A stretch of 32,000 bases of DNA from Candidatus Nanoarchaeia archaeon (GTDB lineage Archaea; Nanobdellota; Nanobdellia; Woesearchaeales; JANQNC01), in the NCBI GenBank assembly GCA_028279745.1, contig JANQNC010000001.1, positions 630,001-662,000 on the forward strand, read 5' to 3'. Positions 11,227 to 32,000 of the stretch are shown in pieces. The notes below the pieces were generated by a model. The model was given only the letters and a program-made list of their open reading frames with translations. It was not told the origin of the DNA and did not search any database. The position numbers were made by a program, and so were the translations under genes. The stretch's first letter is position 1, and every line of letters starts with the position of its first letter.

Positions 11227-11272
11227 ATTATCACCTTTTTTTTCTTTTTTCATTTTATTATACCTTGATTTG

Positions 11273-12962: not shown

Positions 12963-13001
12963 TGAGAGTATTTAAATATTTAGAAAAAAAAAGAAAAAAT
13001 C

Positions 13002-13202: not shown

Positions 13203-13206
13203 ATTA

Positions 13207-13374: not shown

Positions 13375-13431
13375 AACAACCACCTCTAAGGGTTTTTTGT
13401 TCTATGAGTTTAAAAAACTAGCGGTAGAATA

Positions 13432-15236: not shown

Positions 15237-16073
15237 CTATTTAAAGAAAAATAAGACCTTCTTAAAGAATATCAAAATTAGGATAATCACAACAATTGCA
15301 ACCAGTAATAAAGTAGTCAGATTAAAACCGAATTTAAAAATACGTTTACTCTTAATATTTTCTGGATTTTGAAACAAATCTGAAACTTCTGATCCAGTCA
15401 GAACTCTGTCCCAAATCGCAGCTTCATCGATTAATCCTTTAAACGCATGAAAATTATCCCAAGGCTGAGCACCAAAGTTTAAGTCTAAGTCTGGAGACTT
15501 TCTCCAACCATTGCCTGTTGATGAGTTGTCTTCAATCTTACCATTAACAAAAAGTTGGGTTCCTTCAGAAGTATCCCAAGTTATAGTTATATGATACCAT
15601 TGGTTTAATAGAACCTCTGTAGTTGATATTAGTTCTGTTGGTGTGTTATCTTTCATCATGTGAAAATGGAATCTATTGTCCTTCTCTTCTCCACCTACAG
15701 AAACATATTCATAATCACCATACCTGCCGATAAACCTTGGCGAATCATTTTTGTTAGAGTTATAGCTCATAGGGTAAACCCACATAGAAATAGAACCCCT
15801 TTCCATATTATCCATATTGTTTAGCTTGTTGTTAAACCAAATCTTTTCTCCATTACCCCCAAATCTTATTGATCCACCCACTTTACCGTTAGGCTCATAC
15901 CTTGCACCTGAAGAAAGAACTGCGTTGATTGAACCCCAATCATCTCTTACTGGATCAAACCTGCCGTCAAAACTCCAATAGCCAACTAAACCTTCTTCAT
16001 GATCAAGAGGGTCTGCACTGACTAAGCTTATTGTGACTAATAATAGTAGTGTAAAAGTAAATAGTTTATTCAT
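15237..16073 (-). CDS. Secreted LamG / concanavalin-A-like lectin domain protein with C-terminal TM anchor
   Basis: Signal peptide MNKLFTFTLLLLVTISLVSA. LVGYWSFDG, GGSIRFGGNGEKIWF, GSISMWVYP, WYHITITWDTSEGTQLFVNGK and GLIDEAAIWDRVLTGSEVSDLF are typical Laminin_G_3 motifs. C-terminal helix LTTLLLVAIVVIILILIFF. Confidence 0.8.
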   Translation of the reverse strand: MNKLFTFTLLLLVTISLVSADPLDHEEGLVGYWSFDGRFDPVRDDWGSINAVLSSGARYEPNGKVGGSIRFGGNGEKIWFNNKLNNMDNMERGSISMWVYPMSYNSNKNDSPRFIGRYGDYEYVSVGGEEKDNRFHFHMMKDNTPTELISTTEVLLNQWYHITITWDTSEGTQLFVNGKIEDNSSTGNGWRKSPDLDLNFGAQPWDNFHAFKGLIDEAAIWDRVLTGSEVSDLFQNPENIKSKRIFKFGFNLTTLLLVAIVVIILILIFFKKVLFFFK

Positions 16074-16108
16074 AAGTGAGCATCTTAGTGCATTTTATAA
16101 AAATGTTT

Positions 16109-17401
16109 CTAAAGAAATGGTGCAATGTCTTTCTGTTTAGGTATATGATTAATGAAATAAATGTGTCTAAAGGAAGGGTGAGAGTAAAGTTTAATTCTAC
16201 CCGAAACTTTGTACTCCAAGACATCTTCACCATGTATCTTGCACGGCTTCTTTTTCATCTGTCTTGCACCATTAAGTATGTTGCCATCGCAAAAACTCTC
16301 AAGATGAGATATGCAATGCTCCCAAGTCTTAGCAGAGTCTGTTGCATTTGTGACTAAAGTAACGATGGGGTAATGATAGTCTGCACTACGGTCTAGTGCA
16401 TTGTCAGTTACAATAACCGAGTAATAATTATCAATATCAAGTTTCTTACATATGTCTGTGTAGATTTTACCCATAATAAGTTTTGGTTTGTTTGTTTTAT
16501 TCACAAAATTTAGATCAAATGTATTTACACCTAATTTTTTACAAACCCCCTCAAACACATCATCAAGAGTGAGATTCTTAAGATTTAGCTCGCCATCAAA
16601 GGTTTCAATATCACACCCCATCATGTTCAGCAAGTCCCTATGCTTCGCCATCACTTTAGGACGTCTTCCTTTATTCAAACTTTTAATATATGAACTGAAC
16701 CCCTTAGTTAATTCAGCCAGGTGTTCATCCATTTTTTCACTTAGTAACGGAATGTATTTTCGATTCATGACCTCCAACGTCATATGTTCACGTGCATTCG
16801 CTATTAGAGGGACCGAGTATGCGGCATCAAATAAATCCCTAAACCTTCTTTTTGCAGTATCATATTTTGTGGTTCTACTGCCCCAATCAAAAGTTGCTGA
16901 AGAGATTATAGTTGAGTACTTTCGTTTTCCCCTTTTCTTTTTATATGTGTTAACAAAATTAAATAATCCTTTTCTAAGATTGTTGCTTATTTCACAAGTG
17001 TCATCCCAGTCTAAGAAAATAGCTGTTTTATTCTCATTGGTCTGTTCGTGAGATTTTGAAATAGAATAAGATCCAACAATACTCCACTCCCTCATCGCTT
17101 TTTTCGCAGACTCTTCTACACTTAACCCACTTTTTTTCTTATTGGTGACACAGTAATAAAAGAAAGCCACATTGAGCTTGGACCTTGCAAGGAAATGTTT
17201 ATAGATACTTTCAAGTTTTTCTACAGGAAGTCTGCAGTTGTACTTAACTTCTTTACTCCCATCAAAAAGTTCTGTAAAAACACCTACTGCTTCCATAGGG
17301 TGCATCTCAATCTTATCCTTAAAGAGGTTGTCACTATCTACATGGTTGACTTTGTTAAAAAAAGCCTCATATTCCTCAATAAACTGCTCTAAGTTTGCCA
17401 T
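16109..17401 (-). CDS. Orphan 430-aa cytoplasmic protein with HAD-superfamily-like motifs (tentative)
   Basis: Motif I-like AIFLDWDDT (DxDxT, Asp131 at nt 17009-17011). Motif III/IV-like NKPKLIMGKIYTDICKKLDIDNYYSVIVTDNALD resembles KPxP...x20...hhhhGDxxxD. A ~170-aa insert lies between them and a ~125-aa N-terminal extension precedes them. Confidence 0.4.
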   Translation of the reverse strand: MANLEQFIEEYEAFFNKVNHVDSDNLFKDKIEMHPMEAVGVFTELFDGSKEVKYNCRLPVEKLESIYKHFLARSKLNVAFFYYCVTNKKKSGLSVEESAKKAMREWSIVGSYSISKSHEQTNENKTAIFLDWDDTCEISNNLRKGLFNFVNTYKKKRGKRKYSTIISSATFDWGSRTTKYDTAKRRFRDLFDAAYSVPLIANAREHMTLEVMNRKYIPLLSEKMDEHLAELTKGFSSYIKSLNKGRRPKVMAKHRDLLNMMGCDIETFDGELNLKNLTLDDVFEGVCKKLGVNTFDLNFVNKTNKPKLIMGKIYTDICKKLDIDNYYSVIVTDNALDRSADYHYPIVTLVTNATDSAKTWEHCISHLESFCDGNILNGARQMKKKPCKIHGEDVLEYKVSGRIKLYSHPSFRHIYFINHIPKQKDIAPFL

Positions 17402-17559: not shown

Positions 17560-19551
17560 TTAAGGGAAAAGCCTTACTGAGAAAGAATCCAAATCATATA
17601 GTTGGTTGCCAAACTTGTCAACGCCAACAACAGCGAAATGATAAATCTTGCCTTCAGTTTCAGTTAAAGAAACTTGTATAGGTTTGTAATATGTCTTGGT
17701 TTCCTTGTCAAAATAGAAAACATCTGGATGAGTTACCATATCTGATTCAGTTGTTGCATCTTGAACAGTTGAAAGAACAAGTTTTTCCTCCCTAAAAGCA
17801 TCACTAACTTTCTTAAGATCAACAAGAGGCTTGTAATAAACAACATAGTGATCTATATCAGGGGAAGGACTTTGCTTAAATGATAGCAGTGCTGTTCTTG
17901 GAATTGTTTTAGGAAAACTAACTTCTATTGCAGGAGGTGGTGAAGAGTCATTAATGTACAAAGCAAAGTTAATTGACACATTCTGTATTCCTTCTGATGT
18001 TAAAACTTCATTGTAAGTTGGGATACACATCTTAAAGGTTCGATCATCAAGCCTGCATTCGTTATCAACAGAGTTAACACTTGATAAAATATTATTTTCT
18101 TTATGGACTACAAGCTTGTCTTCAACATCAGAGATGAAAAGATTAGAGATGAAACCTCGTTGAACATTTTCAATATCCGTAATCTCTATCTGTTGATTTG
18201 CTAAGACTGCAAAAGTCTTTGAACCATTTTTTATTATTTCAAACTCACTACCTTCAACAAAAATCTCACACTCACAACCATCATCTTTTGAATTTAAGCA
18301 AGAGTCAAGCTGTTCTCTGAAAGATCGTAATGGATCTAGTTTGTCACACTGATAAGACATTTGCCAGCCATTAAAAGCAGCTTCGTTAGCTACACACTCA
18401 CTAAGAGCATAAGAGTCTGTTACTGTCAGATCTTGTTTTGAGTTACATGTATCTGATAGCTGTTTTGCCAATCTTACATAAGCAGAGTAGTTTAATGAGG
18501 ATTTTTCAAAAGGAATATTGAAGTAAGGCATCCTTGAATATAATCCAACAGTCCCGAATGTTGTCTCGACATCTCTCCCCAATGATTCTTGCAATGCGTT
18601 GAAAGGGTTTACAGCTCTTCCGTTGTACTGATCTTGATAAATTCCAAAATGCAAGTGGGGTTGAGTGTTATCAGGAATTCCGCAAGTGTTTCCTGGTTTA
18701 GTGGAGTCGCAATCAGTGTAACATCCTAAATTATCACCTACCGTGCCAAGAATTTCGCCAGCGTTAATTGTATCTCCAACTCTCCAAACTCTGTCTTCAT
18801 CAGTGTTAATACCATACTTCTCTAAATGAGCATAATAGAAATAGTTGCCTTCACTATCTCTTACGCCTATCCTATTACCACCCCATTCATTACACCCTAT
18901 CCGTTCAATCCTTCCTGAGACTGATGCTATTACAGGTGTACCCATAGGTGCAAAAATATCTGTGCCTTCGTGAAGTCTTCCGCCGGGCCTTTCATAACCC
19001 CAATCGTTCTCAAAATAATATTTTTCTTTAACCGGGAAATATTCTAGTTTGCCATCATAGAAAGCACCTTGACCAACCTTAACTGTTATAGGTGCGACAG
19101 GAGTTGCTAGAATTCTGTCTTCTGTAATGTTTATCTTATAGTTATTTTTCTTTAACCTGAAGTTAGCCTCGTAAATATCCAAAGGACTGTTAAGGTTATT
19201 GTTGAATATTGATACAAAATTGTTTGGAATATTATCTAAGTTGTAAACCGTGGATTCGTTTGACCATAATGTGAAACCATAATAACTATTTTCCATTTCT
19301 GCACTGCCGCCCTGATTTCCCAAATCATACAATGATTGCTGAGATGAAATAACTGCAGAATCTGTAATGTAGTTTACTGCTTTCTCAGCATCTGCATATC
19401 TGTTAAAAAGATCTACCTGTCTCTCTCCAACATACCCATCTTGAACATAATCAAACTGTTTTACAGAAAGAACCCTATAACTTGCAATCATAAAAACCAA
19501 GAATCCCAAAACTAGGAAAAGATTGAAAAATTGGGATTTCTTATTTAACAT
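17560..19551 (-). CDS. Prepilin-like N-terminus fused to an M23 (LytM/lysostaphin-type) metallopeptidase and a C-terminal FN3-like domain
   Basis: Trimmed start MLNKKSQFFNLFLVLGFLVFMIA (ATG 19551, 1 nt after the upstream stop). Catalytic HEGTDIFAPMGTPV (HxxxD, nt ~18958-18972) and QPHLHFGIY (HxH, nt 18647-18658). C-terminal DIDHYVVYYKP...YHFAVVGVDKFGNQ is FN3-like. Confidence 0.8.
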   Translation of the reverse strand: MLNKKSQFFNLFLVLGFLVFMIASYRVLSVKQFDYVQDGYVGERQVDLFNRYADAEKAVNYITDSAVISSQQSLYDLGNQGGSAEMENSYYGFTLWSNESTVYNLDNIPNNFVSIFNNNLNSPLDIYEANFRLKKNNYKINITEDRILATPVAPITVKVGQGAFYDGKLEYFPVKEKYYFENDWGYERPGGRLHEGTDIFAPMGTPVIASVSGRIERIGCNEWGGNRIGVRDSEGNYFYYAHLEKYGINTDEDRVWRVGDTINAGEILGTVGDNLGCYTDCDSTKPGNTCGIPDNTQPHLHFGIYQDQYNGRAVNPFNALQESLGRDVETTFGTVGLYSRMPYFNIPFEKSSLNYSAYVRLAKQLSDTCNSKQDLTVTDSYALSECVANEAAFNGWQMSYQCDKLDPLRSFREQLDSCLNSKDDGCECEIFVEGSEFEIIKNGSKTFAVLANQQIEITDIENVQRGFISNLFISDVEDKLVVHKENNILSSVNSVDNECRLDDRTFKMCIPTYNEVLTSEGIQNVSINFALYINDSSPPPAIEVSFPKTIPRTALLSFKQSPSPDIDHYVVYYKPLVDLKKVSDAFREEKLVLSTVQDATTESDMVTHPDVFYFDKETKTYYKPIQVSLTETEGKIYHFAVVGVDKFGNQLYDLDSFSVRLFP

Positions 19552-19552
19552 T

Positions 19553-20050
19553 TTAGTTATACCTCTGCAACTCAACATAAGCAGTCTTATTTATTGAAAC
19601 AGGAACATAAGCGTCAACTGAAGTTGTTGGCGTACCACCAGCACCAGCACCAGAACCTGCAAAACGATCAGGATACCCTTTTTTTTCGTAAATACTTATT
19701 TCGTATCCTACTTCAATCTCATTACTTCCCTTTTTGTAAATATAGATTGCTGAAGACAGCGCTTCGGTTGTCTTATTGTCAAGAATTCCTCTTAATGATC
19801 TATCGTTATAGGTTAAGGCAATCAACTCAGACATCTTAATTGTTTTATTGTTTACATCAACGGGCGTCCTAAGATAGTTAAGCAATACTAAGTTGGATGA
19901 AACCTCATTTGCTTTGCCCTCAATAGCGACTTCTCCCCTGTCACCTTGAACTGTAAACAAGACAAAGAAAACTGCTGCAATAGACACAAATGCAAGTATT
20001 GAAAATGTGTCAAGGTAAACATTTCCCGCCCAAAGTCCTTTCCTATTCAA
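19553..20050 (-). CDS. Prepilin-like protein (165 aa)
   Basis: TTG start. (M)NRKG-LWAGNVYLDTFSILAFVSIAAVFFVLF. 8-nt overlap with the upstream gene. GSGAGAGG linker near the C-terminus. Confidence 0.6.
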   Translation of the reverse strand: MNRKGLWAGNVYLDTFSILAFVSIAAVFFVLFTVQGDRGEVAIEGKANEVSSNLVLLNYLRTPVDVNNKTIKMSELIALTYNDRSLRGILDNKTTEALSSAIYIYKKGSNEIEVGYEISIYEKKGYPDRFAGSGAGAGGTPTTSVDAYVPVSINKTAYVELQRYN

Positions 20051-20552
20051 CTTCTACCACCACATCTAAATCTAATCTTCCCTTCTCAAGACTATTGTCT
20101 TTATGATACAAAATATAATATGACTTCTGAATATTTTCATACTGCTTGAAAGAAGTCAGAGGAATCCACCTATCATACCACAACTTATTGAAGTAAGAAG
20201 TCGAGATTATATTGTTGTTTTCATCTACTAACTCCCCTTTGAAAGCAATCAAAGGTTGTTGTCTTGCGGTATAGTTAAAGGCTTTTGAAAGTCTATCGTT
20301 GAGCACTGTTTCGTTGCTGAAGTATTGATAGTCTATGATGCCCGGGTGACAGATCTCATCACAGTAAGTAAAACCATTATTGCTAAATAAGACTCTTGAA
20401 ACCATAATCTCAGATTCTGCCTTGGCAGTATCAAATGCGATAGTGAAAAAAGAGCTTATGAAAAAAATAACAACAAAGACAACAATAGCAAGGAAAATAA
20501 AATTAAGAATAAGGTTTGGTTTTTTGAATCCAAGCAACGCTTTCTTATCCAT
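20043..20552 (-). CDS. Prepilin-like protein (169 aa; trimmed start)
   Basis: MDKKA-LLGFKKPNLILNFIFLAIVVFVVIFFI. The ATG at 20552 is preceded by GGGGGAG. 8-nt overlap with the upstream gene. Confidence 0.6.
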   Translation of the reverse strand: MDKKALLGFKKPNLILNFIFLAIVVFVVIFFISSFFTIAFDTAKAESEIMVSRVLFSNNGFTYCDEICHPGIIDYQYFSNETVLNDRLSKAFNYTARQQPLIAFKGELVDENNNIISTSYFNKLWYDRWIPLTSFKQYENIQKSYYILYHKDNSLEKGRLDLDVVVEVE

Positions 20553-21516
20553 AATACTCCCCCACTGCATTCTTAACTTTCAGAGCAAATTCTTTTCTTT
20601 TTTCTAAGTTGTTATATGGGAAGTCCTTGCTGACTTCTACCATAACTGAAACATCTGATTTACTGTTCTTTATGAAAGATTTTTCAGTGATAGTTATGTC
20701 CCCTTTGTCCAATTCATCCATTTCAGAAAATTCGTTGATCAAAAGACAGGCAAACTTCTTGTTCTTTAACGAATCATCTTTGATCTGGATATTAACTTTG
20801 TCTTCTTCAGTCAGAACGAAAGAAACTGTAAACGCTTTGTCTTGAGTAATACTTAACCGCGTAGTTTCAGAAACTTCCACATTATCATTCCGAGTCATAA
20901 AAACAGGATCAGGGATAAGTTGTGATTTAACTGCATTAGCTAAAATCCAAGTCACATTAGCTTCACGATTCTGCTCAATAACCATGCCTGGGAAACTACC
21001 TTGGTAAGAAGGATCTAAAACGACACCTTCCTTTTCTTTTCTGAAATTCTTATTTAGTGCTTCTGCGCAACCTAGTCTGTCTGATACGAATTTTATCTCT
21101 CCACCACTTATTGAAAGTGTGTTTGATGATTTTTTGAAGCTGATATCTGAATTGTTTATGAGATTTAGATGAGTGTAAGCTACAGATTGTTCTAGATTAG
21201 AATCAGACACGTAGGGAAAACTTATTCCATTAACGGGTTCTTTAAAGAAAATAGTTGCTTTCCCACCTTCAAAGCTAGCGCTGAAATTATTTATCCTGCC
21301 AGTGTAAATATAATTTACATCACCTGGTGCACCATATATGGATGTGGTCATCAAACCTACTTCCTTAGCAAGATAAATCTTATCAAACAAAATATCATTC
21401 TTAATATCACTAAGTTTAACTGAAAAAGAGATAAAAACAGTAAGAACTAACGCAATTTCCATCAAAACCCACAACATACTATGGGTTTGTGCTCTTTTAC
21501 CTAACCCCTTTTTCAT
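20545..21516 (-). CDS. Prepilin-like protein with a C-terminal domain resembling a degenerate Amidase_3 (MurNAc-L-Ala amidase) fold
   Basis: N-terminus MKKGLGKRA-QTHSMLWVLMEIALVLTVFISF. The C-terminal half reads VVLDPSYQG..PGMVIEQNRE...FMTRNDNVEVSETTRL...AFTVSFVL...NIQIK...KKFACLLINEF...SDVSVMVEVS...EKRKEFALKVKNAVGEYY. This parallels the Amidase_3 consensus (iDpGHGG..E..tR.D..v.l..R...dlfiSiHaN..evyy..lA..i...pavLvE..k.a.ai..gi..y), but the His positions are replaced. Confidence 0.55.
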   Translation of the reverse strand: MKKGLGKRAQTHSMLWVLMEIALVLTVFISFSVKLSDIKNDILFDKIYLAKEVGLMTTSIYGAPGDVNYIYTGRINNFSASFEGGKATIFFKEPVNGISFPYVSDSNLEQSVAYTHLNLINNSDISFKKSSNTLSISGGEIKFVSDRLGCAEALNKNFRKEKEGVVLDPSYQGSFPGMVIEQNREANVTWILANAVKSQLIPDPVFMTRNDNVEVSETTRLSITQDKAFTVSFVLTEEDKVNIQIKDDSLKNKKFACLLINEFSEMDELDKGDITITEKSFIKNSKSDVSVMVEVSKDFPYNNLEKRKEFALKVKNAVGEYYG

Positions 21517-22370: not shown

Positions 22371-22658
22371 TCACCCAAATATAGGAATGCAACACTGTCC
22401 ATCTTTGTCTTGATCTGTTGTTGTGCCAACATATTTACAACCAGGAGTCAGAAGAACTGTTTCGTTTGAAGCGCACCTCTTATCATCCTTATCATCCATA
22501 CATGTACCTTTCTTAGCCTCACAACTGTTCAAGCCCTGTGAAAATCTTCCAGACTGAGTTGAAAAAATCCAACCTATAACCACTAAAGCAATCAAAGCTA
22601 AGACTGCGATAACAATAACGTTAATGGGCATTCCCTGCCCATTCTTAGAAAAAAACAT
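22371..22658 (-). CDS. Small Cys-rich pilin candidate B (95 aa)
   Basis: MFFSKNG-QGMPINVIVIAVLALIALVVIGWIF, then a ~60-aa head with 6 Cys ending GQCCIPIFG. AGGAG lies 9 nt upstream of the ATG. Paralogous to 22663..22953. Confidence 0.7.
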   Translation of the reverse strand: MFFSKNGQGMPINVIVIAVLALIALVVIGWIFSTQSGRFSQGLNSCEAKKGTCMDDKDDKRCASNETVLLTPGCKYVGTTTDQDKDGQCCIPIFG

Positions 22659-22662
22659 TTGT

Positions 22663-22953
22663 TTACTCTCCTATCTTAAGACAACAGTACTGCGGTTGAT
22701 CATCCACATTTCTACAGTTAAGTCCTGTTGTGTCTCTTATGTATCCGTCAATCAAATCCCCATCTGCGCTTGTCTGACATCCAGAATCAGTCGTACAGAT
22801 GTAGTTTCCCGGCTGGCTTTCACAATCACTAACTTGTGTGCTAAAGAAACCTAACCTTGACATGAATATAACACCAACTACAACTAAAACAAGCATAACC
22901 AAAATAGCGATGATAATAACATTCATCGGCAAACCTTGAGCTTTTTTATCCAT
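22663..22953 (-). CDS. Small Cys-rich pilin candidate A (96 aa; trimmed start)
   Basis: MDKKA-QGLPMNVIIIAILVMLVLVVVGVIF, then a ~65-aa head with 7 Cys ending PQYCCLKIGE. The ATG at 22953 is preceded by GAGGTGATTATC. The track start at 22962 is a GTG. Confidence 0.7.
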   Translation of the reverse strand: MDKKAQGLPMNVIIIAILVMLVLVVVGVIFMSRLGFFSTQVSDCESQPGNYICTTDSGCQTSADGDLIDGYIRDTTGLNCRNVDDQPQYCCLKIGE

Positions 22954-22996
22954 GATAATCACCTCTCTAATAGTATATGAAAAATGGCAATGTTAG

Positions 22997-23906: not shown

Positions 23907-23920
23907 TTATTATATAAAAT
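23907..23920 (-). promoter_or_regulatory. TATA-box candidate upstream of the 52-aa ORF
   Basis: The minus strand reads ATTTTATATAATAA about 20-33 nt upstream of the ATG at 23887, inside the 38-nt gap after gene 23926..24708. Confidence 0.35.
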
Positions 23921-23925
23921 TTGTC

Positions 23926-24708
23926 TTAATCAATTCTTCTTTGTTTTACTAACTCTTCACAACCAATCTCAGACATGTGATCATAAGGACTTACAAACAC
24001 CTTATACTCTGCTTCTGCAATCCCTGTAGCTTCAGCAAACTTTTTAGGAGCGTAACCCATCAAAACAACAGCGTAGTCATTATTCTCATGACCAGCATCT
24101 ATCAAACCATCCATAGTGTAAAATACTTGTTCAGTGTAAACATTAGCAATCTTACTGACATCAATTCTCTCAATAAACGGTTCATCTAAAGGAAACGCTT
24201 TGACGAATTTTCCACTATAACGTTTGTCTGTGTAATTCAAAAAAGCCTCTTTCTCCAAAACATAAGTTTCATCACCTGAGAGCTCAGTTATCTCATCAAA
24301 ATTAACAATAAAACGAGAACAGACAAAACAATAAAAATCATTAGTCAAGATATGGTTCTCAAAAGGATCTAGTTTTCCTTCACCGAACTGGACCCAGCAT
24401 TCTCTCATCAAAGGAGTTATTTGGTTTAATAGCTCTTCGGTCTGTTTTTCAGCGTCCTTTTCTTTAACAGTAAGGTTTTCCCTCCAGTTAGTTTCACACA
24501 TCAAAGGAACGTTAGTGCCGGAAACAAAATAAGAAAGCAAACTTCCCTGTTCTTTATCCATCGCTTGAATTGTCGCTAAACAAGAAGCTGCCTTCTGACC
24601 AGAAGGGTAAAGAACTTTTCCAGAAAGCTGAACGAAAAATATTACAAAAATTAGTACTGCAACTCCAAAAACCCACCATAAAACCTTATTTGCTTGTCCT
24701 TTTCTCAT
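23926..24708 (-). CDS. Prepilin-like protein (260 aa), paralog of 24712..25593
   Basis: MRKG-QANKVLWWVFGVAVLIFVIFFV. The shared core ECWVQFGEGKLDPFENHILTNDFYCFVCSRFIVNFDE matches SCTNGVGFGEQNPYIQDRYRGKSNCLVCSELYFEKEE in the neighbour. Confidence 0.65.
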   Translation of the reverse strand: MRKGQANKVLWWVFGVAVLIFVIFFVQLSGKVLYPSGQKAASCLATIQAMDKEQGSLLSYFVSGTNVPLMCETNWRENLTVKEKDAEKQTEELLNQITPLMRECWVQFGEGKLDPFENHILTNDFYCFVCSRFIVNFDEITELSGDETYVLEKEAFLNYTDKRYSGKFVKAFPLDEPFIERIDVSKIANVYTEQVFYTMDGLIDAGHENNDYAVVLMGYAPKKFAEATGIAEAEYKVFVSPYDHMSEIGCEELVKQRRID

Positions 24709-24711
24709 CTT

Positions 24712-25593
24712 CTAGTTATGCATGTAATAACAGACATTCCCCACATTAGTAACCTCATCAGGCAAACCTTTAGTTCCTTGCACAGTTTCAGTTATATCAA
24801 AACTGCTAAGTATTAATCTATCAGTTCCAATCCAGATAGAAGAGACAAACTCTTCATCATTCAAATCTGTATCAACATTAATGACAAAACCAAAAAAGTC
24901 TTTTCCTATAATGAAAGCTTCATTAACAGTATTACCTAAAAGCCTGTATTCATAAACTGTATTGTCTCTTGTGGTTAACACCAGAGGATTGTTGTCTCTT
25001 TTTGCCTGTAATAGTTTATCCCAATAACCTTTCTTATCCACTTTCCAAAGTACTGAGTAGTTTTCAGAGGTGTCAACAACAGCGAGATCATTCAAATCCA
25101 TAAACTGCTGAACTAAAACCCCAGATGCAGTGTGCTGAGTCATACGATCGAAAAAATAATCTGTCTTGGAACCAGGAACAAAATTATAGGTAGACCAATA
25201 AGGGATTTCCCTTATCTTTTCTTCCTTTTCAAAGTAAAGCTCAGAACACACCAAACAGTTAGACTTACCTCTATACCTATCTTGTATGTAAGGGTTTTGT
25301 TCACCAAAACCAACACCATTAGTGCAACTTACTAATCTTGTCAAAATCTTCTTCTTCAACTTATCAATATCATCAAAATCAGTCTCCTTGTAATTTGTGG
25401 GTTTTTCCCTAGGACAGTTTAGTTCTCCCTTCCCCTGTGAAGATAAAGCAATCTGCGCAGTACAAAGACTGGACGTTCTTGTCCTGTCAAAAAAGTTAAC
25501 AATACCTATCGTGATTATAAGAAGAACTATCGCAATACTAACAAGCAAGATAAGATTCTTTATCGTGTTCATGCCCTGTGCTTTTTTGTTCAA
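24712..25593 (-). CDS. Prepilin-like protein (293 aa)
   Basis: TTG start. (M)NKKA-QGMNTIKNLILLVSIAIVLLIITIGIV. The start overlaps the stop of the 40-aa ORF (TTGA at 25590-25593). Confidence 0.65.
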   Translation of the reverse strand: MNKKAQGMNTIKNLILLVSIAIVLLIITIGIVNFFDRTRTSSLCTAQIALSSQGKGELNCPREKPTNYKETDFDDIDKLKKKILTRLVSCTNGVGFGEQNPYIQDRYRGKSNCLVCSELYFEKEEKIREIPYWSTYNFVPGSKTDYFFDRMTQHTASGVLVQQFMDLNDLAVVDTSENYSVLWKVDKKGYWDKLLQAKRDNNPLVLTTRDNTVYEYRLLGNTVNEAFIIGKDFFGFVINVDTDLNDEEFVSSIWIGTDRLILSSFDITETVQGTKGLPDEVTNVGNVCYYMHN

Positions 25594-25712
25594 CTTAACC
25601 CTCCTGCTGTGAGAATCCTTCTCACCACTATAAATGCAATTATCATAAATATCAAAATAGAAACAATAATTATTATGGGATTAATTCCAACTTCTTCTCC
25701 TTTTTTATCCAT
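25590..25712 (-). CDS. Mini prepilin-like / single-TM protein (40 aa), absent from the ORF track
   Basis: Hand translation: MDKKGEEVGINPIIIIVSILIFMIIAFIVVRRILTAGGLS. The ATG is 1 nt after the upstream stop. Confidence 0.5.
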   Translation of the reverse strand: MDKKGEEVGINPIIIIVSILIFMIIAFIVVRRILTAGGLS

Positions 25713-25713: not shown

Positions 25714-26181
25714 TTATCTACACACCTCCAAATATAAAGTAAGCAATGAACCATATGTGGTTCTTAAAGGTTGGTAAGCGTTTTCTCGTTCACCACGACA
25801 GCCACTATTAATACCAACAGGTAAACTTTCTCCATCCACGTCTGCCTCAAACACAAAACTCCTGTCCTGCACAGTGAGTGTTTTATCTAAAATATAAGCA
25901 ATCGTACGGTTGACATAAGAGCAACTGTGCTCGTTATCACAAACTATTGCACCCCTAGTAGCACAATCAAGCAACAAGTCCTGAATATTAAGGCCTCTGC
26001 AAGTAGTAGTTGTGTACTGCAATGAATTTAAGGTAGATGAAGCAACAACACTTGTCGTAACTCTTTGCTCAAGCTCTGACTGAGGTCTCAAAACAACAAA
26101 AGCAATGAAAAACAGCAGACCTACCGCTATCAAAATCACAACAACAACCATACCCATAACTTCTGTCTGTGCTTTCTTCAT
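25714..26181 (-). CDS. Prepilin-like Cys-rich protein (155 aa)
   Basis: MKKA-QTEVMGMVVVVILIAVGLLFFIAFVV. 7 Cys in the head. 1-nt gap to the upstream gene. Confidence 0.65.
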   Translation of the reverse strand: MKKAQTEVMGMVVVVILIAVGLLFFIAFVVLRPQSELEQRVTTSVVASSTLNSLQYTTTTCRGLNIQDLLLDCATRGAIVCDNEHSCSYVNRTIAYILDKTLTVQDRSFVFEADVDGESLPVGINSGCRGERENAYQPLRTTYGSLLTLYLEVCR

Positions 26182-26182
26182 C

Positions 26183-26641
26183 TTAACCCGTCCTAATCGT
26201 AATCAAACCCATGTGATACTCATCCTCAATAGGATACCATAATGAAACTGGAATAAACGAGGCAGTTCCTATCGTTGTTCTGTTGTATAAAATACGGGAC
26301 CAATTTCCAGGATAAACCTCTTCAACAATCACAAGACTGTTTCCTAACTCATCACTATAATAAATTCTGTTAGTGCCATTAGCCATAACTTCTGATAACG
26401 ATTCCAGTTTCAGTACATCAATGCAAGTAAAAACATCATCTCCCCCACCACACTGAAGCTCAGGTAAAAAGAGAAGCTTTTGCATGTTCTCAATAGCTTT
26501 CAAATCTCTATACTTTTTAATATCTTCTTTGGCACTTCCAACTTGAATGTTAGCATAAAAAACTAACCCGATCACTAGAATGAAAAAGAAGACTATTAAA
26601 ACCATCATCGTCTCCATCATTTTCATCTGTGCTTTTCTCAT
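26183..26641 (-). CDS. Prepilin-like protein (152 aa; trimmed start)
   Basis: MRKA-QMKMMETMMVLIVFFFILVIGLVFYA. The ATG at 26641 is 2 nt after the upstream stop. The track start at 26662 would overlap the upstream gene. Confidence 0.65.
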   Translation of the reverse strand: MRKAQMKMMETMMVLIVFFFILVIGLVFYANIQVGSAKEDIKKYRDLKAIENMQKLLFLPELQCGGGDDVFTCIDVLKLESLSEVMANGTNRIYYSDELGNSLVIVEEVYPGNWSRILYNRTTIGTASFIPVSLWYPIEDEYHMGLITIRTG

Positions 26642-26643
26642 TT

Positions 26644-27690
26644 TCAATAAACCAACGGACAAGACTGCCTTCTAATATAATTATCCTGATACGAGTCAAG
26701 ACTTAAAGCATTAGTTGTTAACGTGTCCCTTACAGAAGGACTGTAACCTAAACTTGCAGTCACAATCATCTCATCAATAATTGAGTCAGGCTGGAAATAA
26801 TAATCACGGCAGTACTCAGGAGCAAGATTTGGGTTTTGTTGAAGCTTTAACATCCTGTTCTTGTACACTTGAGCAACTATGCTGAATGTATTTAACGCTT
26901 TATTCATGTTGCAATCATAAGTATCTTTAGAATCTGCAAATATAGCAGCATACATGGTGGCTTCAGAATCAGAATCAGTGCCGAAGAAAGGGGATGTGCC
27001 TTCAGAAACTAAAGATTCCTGATCCATTACATAAAAATTAACATTGTAAGGTGGAGAAGATGTTATGCTTACTGCCCTGACATCAGGGTCAGCAAAATTA
27101 TAAAAACGAGACAGATCAAGATTTTGGATATTGTTATCACAATCAAAACATACAATCTTAATCTTATAACCACTACTTATGTCAATAGTATCAACACTGT
27201 TCTCATCAACCAAATCAACATTCAAAAACTTGTTAGCCATACGCTCATAAACATCATTAGTCAAAAGCGAGTTGGTGTTAGTGTCAAGAATAACATATTT
27301 TGCATCAGGACTTGTGATAAACAAAAGATTTGTGACCTTAAATGGAATGCTCCAAGGCATGCTCCACAATAACATAGTCCTGCCTTTAACACGGTCAGGA
27401 GTAAAAATGGCCCGGTAGTTAATGCTTTCAGACACTCCCTTGAGCCTATAATCCTCACAGCTGAAAAAGATTTCTAAATCATGAAGGTTAAGCTCGGCAG
27501 CACTTCCCCCGCTAACTCTTGCAGAAGTAATCTTAGTCTCTAAATCTTTAATTAAGGAAGCGCTAAGCTTCTGTTCAGAAGCTTCCCTCTGCTGCAAAAC
27601 AAAAACAACAAAGAAAGAAAGGATTATTGCTCCAGCTACTAAAACAAACATCCAGTTAAACTGTATCTCTATCGCACCCTTCTTCCTCAT
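26644..27690 (-). CDS. Prepilin-like protein (348 aa; start 27690, or 27699 as in the track)
   Basis: MRKKG-AIEIQFNWMFVLVAGAIILSFFVVFV. The ATG at 27690 forms an ATGA overlap with the upstream stop (27687-27690). Confidence 0.65.
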   Translation of the reverse strand: MRKKGAIEIQFNWMFVLVAGAIILSFFVVFVLQQREASEQKLSASLIKDLETKITSARVSGGSAAELNLHDLEIFFSCEDYRLKGVSESINYRAIFTPDRVKGRTMLLWSMPWSIPFKVTNLLFITSPDAKYVILDTNTNSLLTNDVYERMANKFLNVDLVDENSVDTIDISSGYKIKIVCFDCDNNIQNLDLSRFYNFADPDVRAVSITSSPPYNVNFYVMDQESLVSEGTSPFFGTDSDSEATMYAAIFADSKDTYDCNMNKALNTFSIVAQVYKNRMLKLQQNPNLAPEYCRDYYFQPDSIIDEMIVTASLGYSPSVRDTLTTNALSLDSYQDNYIRRQSCPLVY

Positions 27691-28244
27691 TCTTCCCATT
27701 CTGTAACCTTAACTCCTCCTCTAACACCCTCAAACTGGAGCTCCACATAGCCACTAATAACTTCAGAACAGAAATAGTAAGGATGTTCAAGCTTTACCTT
27801 GCCAACTGACTCAGCAGAAACAACACCATCACTGTCTATAAGAAACAGATTAGTGTTTGATTCTCTAAGCTCTGGAGATATATCGGGGCCAGAAGGCCTA
27901 ATACTAATTTCATCAAGAATCAAAGGGTAATCTGAGGTAATTATTCCACCTGAATCAGTATCTGCACTTACAAAAGTGTTATAGTTAACTTCATAATCAA
28001 CTAAACATACCGCTGAGTAGTCTGAAGGAACCTTGTATTCTACCTGGTCAATACTCCTAAATCTAGTTCCATCAACAGCATTCGACACACCATTAACAAA
28101 TCTAGTGTACAAAATCTTATCTTGGTTCTCAAGCTGTTGACCAACAAACCTAACACCAAACAATAGCACCAAACCAGCAATCACAATTGCCATGATATAA
28201 ATAAAAATCTGTCCCGATATCTGAGCTTTCCTCACAAAAATCAC
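27687..28244 (-). CDS. Prepilin-like protein (185 aa), first of the run
   Basis: A GTG start at 28244 (GTGA overlap with the adhesin stop) or at 28235. ..VRKA-QISGQIFIYIMAIVIAGLVLLFGV. Confidence 0.65.
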   Translation of the reverse strand: MIFVRKAQISGQIFIYIMAIVIAGLVLLFGVRFVGQQLENQDKILYTRFVNGVSNAVDGTRFRSIDQVEYKVPSDYSAVCLVDYEVNYNTFVSADTDSGGIITSDYPLILDEISIRPSGPDISPELRESNTNLFLIDSDGVVSAESVGKVKLEHPYYFCSEVISGYVELQFEGVRGGVKVTEWEE

Positions 28245-31030
28245 CTCTTACTTTTCTTTTTAGTATTAATCAACTTATCTAACTTATCGACAAACTCGTT
28301 TCTCTCTGCTTTCTTACTTCCCACCGCAGTCAATGAATCAAATACTTGTTTGTCTGAAATTTTCTTATCCTTAATCAAAGTATCTAACTTATCTAAATGC
28401 CTTTCATCCAAACTCTTGATCTTTTTGAAAACGTCCTTCTCCTCTTTTCTTAAAGAACCTAACTTATTAAACACGCTTTTCCTATTTACAAAATCAGATA
28501 AACCTTTGAATTCAGGAGTCTCTTTTCTAACTGGGGCTTTTCTTGCTTTCCTTAAAACTCTGCTTCCAACAGGTGAAATTTTAGATTTCCCAGCAGGCTT
28601 TGGTTCCTCTTTTGGTTTTGATGTGCTGAACACATCAAACAATGAAGATCTTTCTTTTGATTTTCTGACCCTCTCAAGATCTCTAGTTTTTCTAGCAGCA
28701 ATCTGCCTTCTCTGTTCGGGTGTAAGACCTGGAGTTCTAGGTCTTGCAGTTGGCGCAAATCCTGGTGTTGCCCTTTGTTGCACTCTGCTTGCTGCAGGAT
28801 ATGCAGCTTTACCTTTTGGCTTTTTTGAAATAAAGTTAGAGTAAACATAAGAACCTCCTAAACCTACAAGAAGCAAGATTATAACGATGATGATTATTAA
28901 CATCCAATCAAAGCCTTCAGGCTCTGGCTCTTCTTGCCTTTTAGGAACTTGAGGTTTTTGTACAGATGAAGATGAGCCTGCAGAAGTAGGATCTGAATTA
29001 GCTCTATACTCATCCAAGTTAGAAATTCCATCATTATCTGGATCAGCAGCAGAATCATCAAAACCACTATCTAAACTATTTTCATTCTCCCAACTATCAT
29101 CAATCCCATCACAGTCATTATCATTACTGCAACCAATACCTGTAGTGCAACTTCCTATGGAATCACTGCTGTAGTCATCACAGTCAGGACCATTCAAACA
29201 ACCAGGACCATAACCATCCCCATCAGTATCAATCCTGCATTTATTGGTGCAGCCAAATGAAACTGTTGAGTCTAAATCATTACAATCACGACCATCAAAA
29301 CAACCCACGCCATAACTATCTCCGTCGCTATCCTGGATACAACCATTGCCACAATTAGCTAAATTACCCGCAGGGTTAGTGTCATCACAATCATAGCCAC
29401 TAACACAACCAAGACCATAACCATCACGATCATCATCAACGATGCAACCTGCACGACTTACTTCGGCAGTCTCATTATCAGTAGTTGTGGTTGGAGTGTA
29501 TAATGTATCAACCTTAACACCTTTGCTTACTGACTCTGTGGAATTCATACCTGCACCATTCTCTGCAATGGCTGTGAAGTAGTAGGTTAAACCGTTAGTA
29601 AGGTTTAAGTTGGAAGCTGAAACTATTGAGGAAGTTGCTTTTGTCCAGTCTTTAATGTCAGTGGAAAATGCTGACGAACCAATAGCAAAATAGTATGATT
29701 CAATGCCTGACTCAGGATCTGCTGCGTTGATAGTTGCGCTTAATGAATCAAGAGAAGCAGTTATTCCTTCATCAGTAACATTTGTGATTACAGGTGGAGT
29801 TATGTCAACAACAAAATCAATATCTTCAGTAGCAAAACTGTAACCTGTCTCGTTGACAGTTACTTTAAGATAGCTGCAACCAACCTGATAAGAATAACTT
29901 CCACCAGCAACTACAGAAGTGGTATAGGTGTGTGACGTGCCGTCACTAGATGACAGAGGGATACTAAAATTATTATTCCCTGAAGCCAAAGAACACGACG
30001 CAGACTTGCTGGTGGAAATTATAAATGGGATCGCTAAAGAGGACATAAATGGTTCTGGACTTTGAACATCAATCCCCAATCCAAGACCTGTATTAACTTC
30101 AATCTCAATCCTTTCTTCTTCAGACCAAAGCTCAGCTTTATTCATACATTTAACATCAAAAGTGTGAGTTGAGAAATCAGCCAATCCTGTGAACTTCCTT
30201 GTGTTTGTTGTTGAAAAGTTATCGCTAAATCTTTCAAAGCTTGCTCCGTTTTCGGAGTATTCACATCTTGCATCTTCATCAGTGATAACTTCTAAAGTTG
30301 CAGTCCTTATGGGCTCAACAACCTTATTGTTCCAGGTGTCAGGTGCAGTTAATGAGTTTATGATTGGAGGAGATGTATCATAGCTAATCAAAAACATCCT
30401 AGCTGCAATATCATTGTATTGATTTTTACACTTAACATAGAAAGGATATTCCACATTCTCGTTAAGAAGCTGATAAGATGAAATAGAATGGATGTTGTTA
30501 TTGTCTGAGAAATCATATGAGTTATCAAATGAAGTGTCAACATTATTGTACTTACAAGAAGCATTAACAAAAGTGTCTATCGTTACTGGAAATGTGGACG
30601 AGGATGCAACCCCATTTGAAGGATCCACCATCGATACATTAAACGGAAGCTCAACTATCGTAAACTTAGAATAAAAAGTTCCAGAGTTACCGAAAATATC
30701 TTCTGCAGTTATCTTAAATGTAAAGTTTCCTTCTTCAAGTCTTTCTACAGGCTCAAATACGAATGTGTTGTCAGTCTTGACAGGAGGGTTAAGAGCTACA
30801 AAGTTTAAGTTAGAAGAGTTAGATGTGTTGGTCTGACTAAAAAAGTCAACAAAACCCCTAACTAACGCGTAAGAAGTTACAGAAACATTTGTAGGATCAT
30901 CAAAAACAACATAAACAACCGGCTCAGGAGTGTAAACTTCTCTGATGTTAGGAGGAGCAAGAGAGCTAACAAAAACTGCACTCAATAAAATTATTAAAAC
31001 AAATACTATTTTTCTCATCTTCAAAATCAT
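28241..31030 (-). CDS. Large type I membrane surface protein: Ig/FN3-like domains, MopE-like Cys/Asp repeats, TSP3-like Ca-binding repeats, TM helix, basic disordered cytoplasmic tail
   Basis: Sec signal MRKIVFVLIILLSAVFVSS. FN3-like GIESYYFAIG...GLTYYFTAIAENGAGMNS. Three copies of DxDGDGYGxGC...DCDD. Then DNDCDGIDDSWENENSLDSGFDDSAADPDNDGISNLDEYRANSDP. TM WMLIIIIVIILLLVGLGGSYVY. A ~205-aa K/R/P-rich tail follows. Confidence 0.8.
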   Translation of the reverse strand: MILKMRKIVFVLIILLSAVFVSSLAPPNIREVYTPEPVVYVVFDDPTNVSVTSYALVRGFVDFFSQTNTSNSSNLNFVALNPPVKTDNTFVFEPVERLEEGNFTFKITAEDIFGNSGTFYSKFTIVELPFNVSMVDPSNGVASSSTFPVTIDTFVNASCKYNNVDTSFDNSYDFSDNNNIHSISSYQLLNENVEYPFYVKCKNQYNDIAARMFLISYDTSPPIINSLTAPDTWNNKVVEPIRTATLEVITDEDARCEYSENGASFERFSDNFSTTNTRKFTGLADFSTHTFDVKCMNKAELWSEEERIEIEVNTGLGLGIDVQSPEPFMSSLAIPFIISTSKSASCSLASGNNNFSIPLSSSDGTSHTYTTSVVAGGSYSYQVGCSYLKVTVNETGYSFATEDIDFVVDITPPVITNVTDEGITASLDSLSATINAADPESGIESYYFAIGSSAFSTDIKDWTKATSSIVSASNLNLTNGLTYYFTAIAENGAGMNSTESVSKGVKVDTLYTPTTTTDNETAEVSRAGCIVDDDRDGYGLGCVSGYDCDDTNPAGNLANCGNGCIQDSDGDSYGVGCFDGRDCNDLDSTVSFGCTNKCRIDTDGDGYGPGCLNGPDCDDYSSDSIGSCTTGIGCSNDNDCDGIDDSWENENSLDSGFDDSAADPDNDGISNLDEYRANSDPTSAGSSSSVQKPQVPKRQEEPEPEGFDWMLIIIIVIILLLVGLGGSYVYSNFISKKPKGKAAYPAASRVQQRATPGFAPTARPRTPGLTPEQRRQIAARKTRDLERVRKSKERSSLFDVFSTSKPKEEPKPAGKSKISPVGSRVLRKARKAPVRKETPEFKGLSDFVNRKSVFNKLGSLRKEEKDVFKKIKSLDERHLDKLDTLIKDKKISDKQVFDSLTAVGSKKAERNEFVDKLDKLINTKKKSKR

Positions 31031-32000
31031 TCATACTCAAAATCTGGCTCTTCAGGAGCTTTCCGATCTGAAATCATCAGTAATTCCTGAACAATCTGGT
31101 TGCCAGAGTAATCAACACCAATTAGGTTTATACGGTTCATGACCTCTTCGCCAGGGTCAGTTTCAAGGAAAAGCTCTATAGTGAAAGTATCATCAACTAT
31201 TGAAGCTTGATCATTCAATATTTCTTCAAATATGAAATCAACATCTCCTCTCTTGAAAGTGCCGTGAGCTATTACACTATTCTTATCAGTCCTGTAAACA
31301 TTATCACCCATCCATAAAGCATCTTCAATGTAAGTTACCTTGAAAGGGGGCTCTACAACCAGAGGTGTTAATGTGTATTGTATTTCTGCTTCATTTCCTG
31401 CTTTATCCTTTACTGAAACTTTTACATTAGACGTATTATCAATACTTATCACTCCGTTAAAGAATCCTTCTGTGTAAGTGTTTTCTTCAACTTCTGCCAT
31501 GAACTGGTTAATGAAAACAGACTCCAAACCATTAGTGTCTGACCATGTTCCCCTAACTGTTGGAGTGTAAGTTGTTGTTATATTTCCAGATGTTACCTGG
31601 ATAATAGGAGAGGTTGTATCAACAATAAATTCTCTGTTAGCAACTCCCGTCTTTGCACCAGAGATCGCTTCAATTTTCATACTATGTTTTCCCTCTGTTA
31701 AAACAGGTGAAGAAACAGTGTAAGTTCTTAGATCGACAGCAGTTGTTATTGCAGGAGTGTTGTCAACTGTAACTGTAATTCCCCCATCAACATCTTTATC
31801 GAAAGTTAGCGTAAAAGTTGGGGTTGTTGAATTAGTATATTTTGGAATTGCTGAAGTTAAAGTAGGTGCGTCTTTGTCGTATGTGAAAGACCAAGCAGTT
31901 GAAGCAGTGTTATTGACTAAATCAGATGCTGACAAAGCCATGTCAAACTCTTCAAAGTCTACAGCTGGCGGTAATGATATAATATAACTTAAACTTCCAC
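31027..32000 (-). CDS. C-terminal part of another large Ig-like-domain surface protein; N-terminus beyond the window
   Basis: The frame stays open upstream of the track ATG (31941) to nt 32000 (..GSLSYIISLPPAVDFEEFDMALSA..). Domain-boundary motifs DKDAPTLTS and VDTTSPIIQVTS are present. Its stop overlaps the next start (ATGA at 31027-31030). Confidence 0.75.
   Translation of the reverse strand, partial: GSLSYIISLPPAVDFEEFDMALSASDLVNNTASTAWSFTYDKDAPTLTSAIPKYTNSTTPTFTLTFDKDVDGGITVTVDNTPAITTAVDLRTYTVSSPVLTEGKHSMKIEAISGAKTGVANREFIVDTTSPIIQVTSGNITTTYTPTVRGTWSDTNGLESVFINQFMAEVEENTYTEGFFNGVISIDNTSNVKVSVKDKAGNEAEIQYTLTPLVVEPPFKVTYIEDALWMGDNVYRTDKNSVIAHGTFKRGDVDFIFEEILNDQASIVDDTFTIELFLETDPGEEVMNRINLIGVDYSGNQIVQELLMISDRKAPEEPDFEYE

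Follow-up and report, generated by a model that had tools for sequence, protein, structure and literature searches.

In Pseudomonas aeruginosa, the fimU-pilVWXY1E operon combines minor pilins with the large adhesin PilY1, and the major pilin gene pilA is transcribed separately. The PilY analogy has been used for archaeal loci (PMC4858521), and large proteins with immunoglobulin (Ig)-like folds or a C-terminal anchor are recurrent in archaeal type IV pilus loci (PMC4858521; 10.64898/2026.04.22.720090). In subsystem 4G of Pyrobaculum and Thermoproteus (arCOG05616), two large proteins, one of them with a C-terminal transmembrane (TM) segment, are accompanied by many Cys-rich pilins (PMC4858521; 10.64898/2026.04.22.720090). 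The Epd pilus cluster of Methanococcus maripaludis, i.e. archaeal type IV filament (TFF) system 1, comprises 11 genes in a single transcription unit, with class III signals of the EppA type (KG/Q) and an adhesin-like protein, and TFF system 1 has been reported in some DPANN archaea as well (10.64898/2026.04.22.720090). Here, we analysed a stretch of 32 000 nt of contig JANQNC010000001.1 (hereafter referred to as the window) and in particular its positions 28241-32000, where two genes for large Ig-like surface proteins, IgUp and A925, precede a series of pilin-like genes on the minus strand. What we describe is a type-IV-filament-like cluster of an archaeon that is accompanied by large surface proteins, and the occurrence of large adhesin-like genes in such clusters is an already established theme.

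The preferred reading, to which we assign a probability of roughly 60 %, is that 28241-32000 represents the 5′ part of a deeply conserved operon of a DPANN archaeon, in which adhesin or scaffold genes are combined with a set of minor-pilin-like genes. The archaeal origin of the window is indicated by the genes for RadA (10291-11253), an archaeal-type uS2 (7338-7940) and an RPA-like OB-fold protein (14184-15176), as well as by motifs of the archaeal promoter type, i.e. B recognition element (BRE) plus TATA box, preceding its genes. Since, in addition, a relative of A925 (P0006) stems from a Candidatus Woesearchaeota metagenome-assembled genome (MAG), we treated the organism as a DPANN, Woesearchaeota-like archaeon. 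The GC content of the window is around 36 %, and tRNA and Rfam scans of it gave no match. IgUp and A925 open a nearly gapless minus-strand array of 19 genes, which extends from 32000 down to 17560 and continues with 17 genes for proteins carrying a class III signal, i.e. prepilin-like proteins (Table 1).

Compared by gene layout, subsystem 4G is the closest known system. Common to both are a pair of large proteins, of which one has a C-terminal TM anchor and the other does not, Ig-fold ectodomains, and many pilin-like proteins with conserved paired cysteines. In contrast to 4G, the cluster described here belongs to a DPANN host, does not include genes for an ATPase, a platform protein or a MinD-like protein, and is characterized by the long conserved cytoplasmic tail of A925 and by hydrolases with class-III-like N-termini within the array. 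With Epd it shares leaders of the [KR][GA]-Q type, many minor pilins and an adhesin-like gene inside the operon; the Epd cluster, however, includes its own peptidase and adjoins ATPase and platform genes, whereas the present cluster has none of these nearby and harbours peptidoglycan hydrolases instead. The likeness to the bacterial fimU-pilVWXY1E operon lies in a large Sec-exported non-pilin protein encoded with around four low-abundance pilin-like subunits in one operon, and in a major pilin gene with its own promoter. This is a likeness across different domains of life without shown sequence homology: PilY1 is a beta-propeller protein without a membrane anchor, whereas in A925 Ig-like domains are combined with a TM anchor and a cytoplasmic tail, and neither a PilY1 nor a DUF2341 domain, as expected of a PilY1-type adhesin, was found by Pfam in A925 or in its 2022-aa homologue.

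The gene order is conserved far beyond the window. In four close relatives (L001, L003, L004 and L005), the A925 homologues of which show 50-60 % identity, an IgUp homologue is located directly before the A925 homologue, and pil182 directly after it in L001, L003 and L004; the contig of L005 stops 26 nt beyond the A925 homologue. L001 is collinear with the entire array down to the M23 peptidase gene, with protein identities of 40-70 %. More distant loci were collected by scanning metagenome contigs with the alignment of the small Cys-rich pilins (A4), which yielded 80 loci that were then searched with all window proteins. The recurrent order in these loci was the large-protein gene, pil182, p348, p152, p155, the small pilins, p293/p260-like and other genes, and then a lytic block consisting of the amidase-like gene, p169, p165 and the M23 gene; the p348, p152 and p155 families were each recovered from 37-47 of the fetched loci, with their order retained. 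In all 21 loci with sequence upstream of the pil182 homologue, representing 18 lineages at 70 % identity, a same-strand open reading frame (ORF) was found -4 to 97 nt upstream of it. Wherever enough of this ORF is present, it encodes a C-terminal TM segment followed by a tail of 130-350 aa, and where complete or nearly so it is 1000-2140 aa long. Identity with the 929-aa form of A925 across these distant lineages is 22-28 %.

Of the neighbouring genes, a ~400-aa protein of one family is encoded just upstream of the large gene in L015, L027, L030 and L043, and the only complete member, in L043, has a class-III-like N-terminus; therefore, the cluster does not necessarily begin with the adhesin genes. 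In L002, a gene for the p30 subunit of RNase P (3999-4475; identified by Pfam) lies just upstream of the cluster, and an ORF at the same place in L043 (1452-2090) has an N-terminal sequence similar to that of the L002 protein, so that this position may mark the 5′ cluster boundary in these two lineages. Further downstream, RPA-like and YdjM genes (window 13729-15176; e.g. L027:16686-18193) are syntenic in 14 and 8 of the fetched loci, respectively, and the cluster accordingly occupies a conserved chromosomal position. Profile scans of genome contigs (A1, and A2 built from the N-terminal part of IgUp) and a metagenome scan with A1 gave no confirmed relative, neither the 929-aa nor the 925-aa product had an identical database entry, and a search for homologues of pil182 returned five close relatives, all on contigs of <2 kb and unusable for synteny. 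L005 was rejected as an example of an operon start, as the 5′ end of this JGI contig (1-330) is an inverted copy of the adjacent coding sequence, i.e. a hairpin-type assembly chimera that yields a false 'divergent gene' and a false operon start.

The distribution of promoter-like elements points in the same direction as the synteny. Five copies of the motif AAMNTTTATAWA are present in the window, where 0.37 would be expected, all of them on the minus strand and in intergenic gaps. Three of these BRE/TATA-like elements (Table 1) occupy the only three gaps of ≥38 nt in the array, and between 32000 and 23926 a single sense-strand TATA-like match was found, at 27105 inside p348. In the 80 loci, a TATA-like octamer was looked for 10-75 nt upstream of each gene and compared with random 65-nt windows, 3 % of which contain one. 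It precedes the first small pilin gene in 51 of 74 loci, pil182 in none of 21, p348 in 2 of 32, p152 in none of 36 and p155 in none of 40. When the large gene follows an intergenic gap (L046, L060, L079, L043 and L002), a TATA-like motif is present 18-74 nt before its start. Given the conserved adjacency and the lack of a TATA-like motif before pil182, p152 and p155, together with its presence before large genes that follow a gap, one transcript probably covers both the large-protein genes and the first pilin-like genes, and in the window this unit probably runs through p260, including p40 and p293. The small pilins and the lytic-enzyme genes, on the other hand, are best read as being transcribed from promoters of their own. 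Scans for sigma-70 promoters and intrinsic terminators in the window remained at chance level, these models not being applicable to an archaeon. The exact sequence AACATTTATAAA is also found at 8503-8514 and 11951-11962 (minus strand), ~30 nt before p142 and 25 nt before p115; its location before these unrelated genes would make it a usable BRE plus TATA promoter consensus for this organism.

These results bear directly on the initial annotation, which had placed Sec-type surface proteins and class-III-signal proteins in one operon and had named loss of synteny in relatives as the observation that would speak against it. The operon is well supported by both synteny and promoter pattern, and the adjacency is retained in 21 of 21 loci from 18 lineages, with L001 collinear throughout. 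The adhesin genes had also been placed at the head of the pilin-like cluster, which holds insofar as they directly precede pil182 but has to be qualified by the ~400-aa class-III-like protein that comes before them in four relatives. Likewise, the view that the whole block of 14+ kb forms one apparatus, with its adhesins and pilin-like proteins made from one transcript, is retained in part: because promoter-like elements occupy the three real gaps, the 14-kb block is probably a functionally linked cluster of several transcription units rather than a single transcript. Finally, 'giant' TM-anchored adhesins of the Sec type were proposed; A925 is indeed of the Sec type and anchored, but it is the only one of the two proteins for which an anchor is seen, and 'giant' overstates a protein of 925-929 aa.

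A925 starts with a Sec-type signal peptide (MRKIVFVLIILLSAVFVSSLA) and does not have the class III pattern at its N-terminus, unlike the 17 proteins encoded downstream. Its ectodomain of ~680 aa contains about five Ig/fibronectin type III (FN3)-like beta-sandwich domains (aa ~40-510), four Cys-rich DxDxDGYGxGC..G.DC.D repeats and a TSP3-like Ca-binding repeat, and the protein has 13 N-glycosylation sequons and 20 Cys residues. The AlphaFold model is all-beta for aa 39-507, with local predicted local distance difference test (pLDDT) values of 60-89, and shows a helix at 709-732. Hydropathy and alignment indicate that the TM segment is kept in all homologues, and the tail displays motifs shared across distant lineages, namely R..LF..F together with [DE][IV]F.KL..[IL] in two or three copies; the tails of the A925 family matched no known domain. 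Foldseek returned only generic tandem Ig/FN3 arrays for A925, such as titin, gp130 and contactin (E down to 6e-14), and 'adhesin' is therefore used as a descriptive label only. Pfam gave a sub-threshold Big_13 match for A925 and sub-threshold matches to Big_13 and Glucodextran_B for IgUp, while TSP3_bac, DUF4215 and Big_13 were recovered in the 2022-aa homologue of L027. A match of A925 to the Amuc_1099 'pilus-like system' was rejected, since it comprised only the TSP3-like repeat and reached 25 bits against a cut-off of 50.

No membrane segment is predicted in the visible part of IgUp (324 codons), which ends in a soluble C-terminus (...DRKAPEEPDFEYE) that follows the conserved pattern ...DRK.P..PEFEY(E/K/N). 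The PEFEY C-terminus is shared by the IgUp orthologues in L001, L003, L004 and L005, of which that in L003 comprises at least 972 aa and is still open at the contig end. A homologue search with the partial IgUp sequence of 323 aa gave no match. In L030, a tandem pair of large proteins (1062 and 1177 aa; 978-7696) is collinear with the single 2022-aa protein of L027 (1252-7320; E=1e-64 and 4e-34), which represents a gene split or fusion of the large surface protein. That IgUp and A925 arose in the same way from one gene of ~2000 aa is only suggestive. A further large surface protein of 2268 aa is encoded at the opposite end of the window (7-6813, plus strand); its general layout, a Cys-rich region combined with a C-terminal TM helix and a tail on the cytoplasmic side, resembles that of A925, but the tail is different and consists of three ~45-aa repeats (...GW...).

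'Adhesin-like' is fair as a description of A925, which may function as an adhesin, an envelope protein or a scaffold. It is possible, though unlikely, that A925, with IgUp, is a cell-envelope or S-layer-like protein that does not bind a host, and that the envelope is built or remodelled locally along with the filament. The combination of Sec signal, Ig-like ectodomain, sequons and C-terminal TM segment is the classic layout of an archaeal S-layer glycoprotein, and the C-terminally anchored large protein of the Pyrobaculum/Thermoproteus type IV pilus loci was read as S-layer-like by Makarova et al. (PMC4858521); such proteins have also been suggested to prime the wall for pilus passage (10.64898/2026.04.22.720090). 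However, a size range of 859-2140 aa and identities of 22-28 % across lineages are easier to reconcile with a host-facing protein than with one that forms a lattice. A conserved tail of 130-350 aa with linear motifs is atypical of S-layer anchors as well, the cytoplasmic part being ~200 aa in A925 as against the very short one of S-layer glycoproteins, and other large anchored proteins of the window, e.g. the 2268-aa protein, are equally eligible as envelope proteins.

All 17 proteins from pil182 to the M23 peptidase have a [KR][KRNS]?[GAS] motif ending at residues 4-7, followed by a hydrophobic 19-mer with a mean hydropathy of 2.2-3.7, and thus carry, at the motif level, the class III signal of archaeal TFF or type IV pilus (T4P) systems. 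The structural model of pil182 consists of a 54-residue N-terminal helix and an alpha/beta head. In a profile search, the pil182 family comprised 824 representative clusters (50 % identity) at E≤1e-3 and 101 at E≤1e-10. The small pilins (~95 aa) have a near-invariant KKAQG(M/L)(P/S)xNVIIIA N-terminus and six conserved Cys ending in CC, and are present in two to four tandem copies in relatives (e.g. L002:7268-9319); p95a and p95b are candidate major subunits.

The array closes with the lytic block, in which the Amidase_3-like protein, p169, p165 and the M23 peptidase all have class-III-like N-termini. The latter is a full member of its family (PF01551, E=1.1e-16, 61.2 bits vs a cut-off of 28.7) and has both sets of zinc ligands, i.e. 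HxxxD as HEGTD and HxH as HLH. In other loci the catalytic domains are exchanged: an M23-family member (L047:7127-10123) contains an SLT transglycosylase domain, and an amidase-like-family member (L021:12692-16177) a Muramidase (N-acetylmuramidase) domain (PF11860, E=2e-35), the latter again with a class-III-like N-terminus. This swapping of hydrolase domains is consistent with a conserved role against peptidoglycan.

Instead of belonging to a filament, the class-III-signal proteins could form a short pseudopilus or a bindosome-like assembly that exports or displays the hydrolases, with A925 as a membrane scaffold, which we consider distinctly unlikely. The class-III-like N-termini of the hydrolases, i.e. 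the amidase-like and M23 proteins and their SLT or Muramidase relatives, are in keeping with such an assembly, as is the presence of 17 different pilin-like proteins of very unequal size. Class-III-like N-termini are also carried by the sugar-binding proteins of the Sulfolobus bindosome. The bindosome is mentioned in the description of the archaeal loci (PMC4858521), and p152 shows a weak NCBIfam match to the bindosome protein BasB (E=0.064), which is, however, far below the cut-off and at noise level. Moreover, the multi-copy six-Cys small pilins with their own strong promoter resemble major filament subunits, and Bas-type ATPase or membrane proteins are absent nearby in the fetched loci.

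Table 1. Positions of the genes, protein segments, junctions and promoter-like elements of the array in the 32 000-nt window
Feature	Position	Strand	Basis or remark
IgUp, first large Ig-like surface-protein gene, 3′ part (324 codons)	31027..32000	-	open at window edge
A925, gene of the 925-aa protein (929 aa if ATG 31030)	28241..31018	-	signal peptide, Ig/FN3-like domains, TM segment, tail
A925 C-terminal TM segment (WMLIIIIVIILLLVGLGGSYVY), ~aa 703-727	28850..28924	-	hydropathy and model helix 709-732
A925 cytoplasmic tail, ~200 aa, basic	28244..28849	-	alignment with tails of 19 loci
ATGA	31030-31027	-	IgUp stop TGA (31029-31027) and possible ATG (31030-31028)
GTGA	28244-28241	-	A925 stop TGA (28243-28241) and GTG 28244-28242
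Shine-Dalgarno sequence GAGGTGA of pil182	28241..28247	-	holds A925 stop TGA and GTG 28244-28242
pil182, first class-III-signal (pilin-like) gene	27687..28235	-	GTG start 28235; N-terminus MRKAQ/ISGQIFIYIMAIVIAGLVLLFG
p348, p152, p155, pilin-like genes	25714..27699	-	with pil182, conserved core after large-protein gene
p40, p293, p260, class-III-like genes	23926..25712	-	overlaps or gaps ≤3 nt
BRE/TATA-like element AAATTTTATATA	23911..23922	-	38-nt gap before p52; L001 gap holds only similar TTTTAAATA
BRE/TATA-like element AACCTTTATAAA	22997..23008	-	before small Cys-rich pilins; conserved in L001 (AAAACTTTATAAAC)
p95a, p95b, small (95 aa) pilins, six Cys each	22371..22950	-	alignment A4
BRE/TATA-like element AACATTTATAAA	21540..21551	-	before amidase-like gene; conserved in L001 (AAACATTTATAAAC)
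Amidase_3-like protein (20545-21516, sub-threshold), p169, p165, M23 peptidase (17560-19551)	17560..21516	-	

Two other groups of minus-strand genes lie beyond the array. Directly after the M23 gene, the region 15237-17401 encodes a 430-aa protein without family match or signal sequence, and also a protein with a LamG/concanavalin-like lectin domain that carries both a signal peptide and a C-terminal TM helix. The regions 8526-9059, 12406-12717 and 12714-13692 encode two small Cys-rich proteins, both equipped with a signal peptide and anchored by a C-terminal TM segment, as well as a run of four membrane proteins of 58-86 aa; none of these small proteins had a family match.

With regard to the junctions at the 5′ end, the initial annotation had described IgUp, A925 and pil182 as chained by overlapping stop and start codons. 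The ATGA and GTGA tetranucleotides and the ORF sizes are correct, the longest ORFs on the minus strand being 929 codons at 31030-28241 and 185 codons at 28244-27687, preceded by the IgUp ORF of 324 codons from the window edge with its stop TGA at 31029-31027; the start codons concerned, however, are likely unused. The A925 homologues in the four close relatives begin at MKK, corresponding to M5 of the window protein (ATG 31018), directly in the case of P0002-P0004 and in that of P0005 once a TTG start is taken, and in the contigs of these relatives the stop of the upstream gene is located 1-16 nt before that start. Similarly, the pil182 orthologues begin with M(R/K)KAQISGQ (L001 and L004) or MNRKGQIVGQ (L003), in alignment with GTG 28235 of the window, and the source database calls a gene of 182 aa (P0009), which agrees with this start. 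In L001, L004 and the window, the TGA stop is embedded in a Shine-Dalgarno sequence (G)AGGTGA, followed by a 5-nt spacer and then ATG, TTG or GTG, and GTG 28244-28242 is therefore taken as part of the Shine-Dalgarno sequence; in L003, GAGGTG comes after the upstream stop. The GAGGTGAT motif of pil182, with its spurious GTG 'start', also precedes p95a at 22951-22962. Four close relatives for A925, and three together with the 182-aa gene call for pil182, thus point to real starts probably located 12 and 9 nt further downstream, i.e. at ATG 31018 and GTG 28235, respectively, and the window junctions are most likely gaps of 8 nt and 5 nt rather than 4-nt overlaps.

Regardless of the start codons, 11 of the 18 same-strand junctions of the array overlap when the longest ORFs are considered, four of them by exactly 4 nt, and a 4-nt overlap requires no more than A, G or T before a TGA stop and the correct reading frame. 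Therefore, the tetranucleotides by themselves carry little information. A genuine ATGA overlap, followed by a short leader (e.g. MRKSQ, MNKRG or MKAQ), is present in six loci (L015, L045, L046, L053, L056 and L058). Upstream of both candidate ATGs of A925 a Shine-Dalgarno-like sequence is missing, as it is in the relatives, while other genes of the array bear clear GGAGG/GGTGA motifs. With distances of -4 or +8 nt between IgUp and A925 and of -4 or +5 nt between A925 and pil182, translational coupling is plausible at both junctions. That nothing more than gene packing in a genome of 1.3 Mb lies behind the adjacency and the overlaps, with the large proteins and the pilin-like genes being functionally unrelated, is very improbable: mechanical overlaps of this kind are indeed not specific, and the synteny of the housekeeping genes RPA and YdjM illustrates that position alone is not proof of a shared function, but same-strand adjacencies of ≤97 nt in all 21 loci despite identities of only 22-28 %, a promoter pattern that puts the large gene and four pilin-like genes in one unit, and a linkage that survives even in the rearranged L002 all argue against it.

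Several observations weigh against the preferred reading of an operon for an anchored adhesin or scaffold and minor-pilin-like subunits. The gene order has exceptions: L030 and L043 have no pil182, with the large gene leading straight to p348; L040 and L042 begin at p348 and have neither the large gene nor pil182; and L002, a contig of a Woesearchaeota MAG, is rearranged, with p348/p152-like genes divergent, its adhesin homologue nonetheless being flanked by pilin genes. No Pfam or NCBIfam pilin family matches the pilin-like proteins of the array, and the model of pil182 is of moderate confidence (pLDDT 61.5) and had no Foldseek match in the PDB at E≤0.001. No secretion ATPase, platform protein or prepilin peptidase is encoded among the window ORFs, and in the fetched loci none of these families recurs within ~10 kb of the small pilins, as judged by protein clustering and, for part of the neighbours, by Pfam scans without such a match. 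Accordingly, an ATPase (ArlI/PilB) and a platform protein (ArlJ/TadC) encoded with the pilins were found neither in the window nor in the ~10 kb of these loci, and the filament machinery, if existing, must be encoded elsewhere. Furthermore, a TM-anchored protein cannot itself occupy the tip of a pilus. IgUp shows only weak homology to the ~2000-aa proteins in their N-terminal half, and the L003 orthologue of IgUp matches only Ig-like middle regions of these proteins (E ~1e-6 to 1e-10). Finally, promoters located within coding sequence may also contribute to the transcription of the block.

Taking these points into account, we propose that a promoter beyond the window edge would drive one or two genes for large Ig-like surface proteins, followed by pil182, p348, p152 and p155, i.e. 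low-copy genes that are separated by gaps of ≤8 nt and lack promoters, and in this organism by p40, p293 and p260 as well. A925 would be a type I membrane protein with a Sec signal, an ectodomain, one TM helix and a conserved cytoplasmic tail, with which IgUp, having no visible C-terminal TM segment, probably associates; in other lineages, one gene of ~2000 aa may take the place of the IgUp/A925-type pair. Translation of A925 may be favoured to proceed by termination-reinitiation, since there is no Shine-Dalgarno sequence and the IgUp stop lies 8 nt upstream of, or overlaps, its start. The A925 stop located inside the Shine-Dalgarno sequence of pil182 would, in turn, bring terminating ribosomes to pil182. 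If minor-pilin/PilY1 operons and archaeal type-IV-filament loci are taken as a guide, the operon may supply a fixed ratio of a cell-anchored adhesin or scaffold and minor-pilin-like subunits, which would serve to nucleate or cap a filament built from the small Cys-rich pilins. The latter would be expressed from their own promoter and assembled by means of an ATPase and a platform protein encoded elsewhere, and the same structure might display the pilin-like peptidoglycan hydrolases against bacterial cell walls.

It is tempting to speculate further that the module constitutes a DPANN-specific organelle for attacking hosts, in which an A925-type protein, four minor-pilin-like proteins and small Cys-rich pilins are combined with pilin-like hydrolases, the M23, SLT or muramidase domains of which are interchangeable, as filament subunits or cargo. 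We regard this as a tentative and rather unlikely extension, and the same low probability, taken jointly with that of the organelle, applies to the idea that A925 couples the binding of an external target to the cytoplasm by way of its conserved tail. In the genomes of DPANN archaea (Nanoarchaeota and Woesearchaeota), domains of the M23, SLT/GH23 and muramidase types have been read as tools against bacteria (PMC12352652; PMC9723730). Text searches of these two papers gave no mention of pilins or pili, of a placement in a pilin-like cluster or of class-III-like N-termini of the hydrolases, and in a limited literature search we found no description of this DPANN module, of a large protein with TM segment plus tail, or of pilin-like N-termini of hydrolases.

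The module bears on how DPANN archaea beyond the few cultivated ones attach, and to which partners. It is widespread and essentially unannotated, as among its pilin-like proteins only the M23 peptidase passes a curated Pfam/NCBIfam cut-off. It joins a large anchored surface protein and a minor-pilin-like set with hydrolases in which others have seen a sign of predation on bacteria, and provides concrete gene targets along with a predicted operon map. If it did prove to be a host-attack organelle, many Woesearchaeota-type archaea would attach to and breach bacteria rather than archaea.

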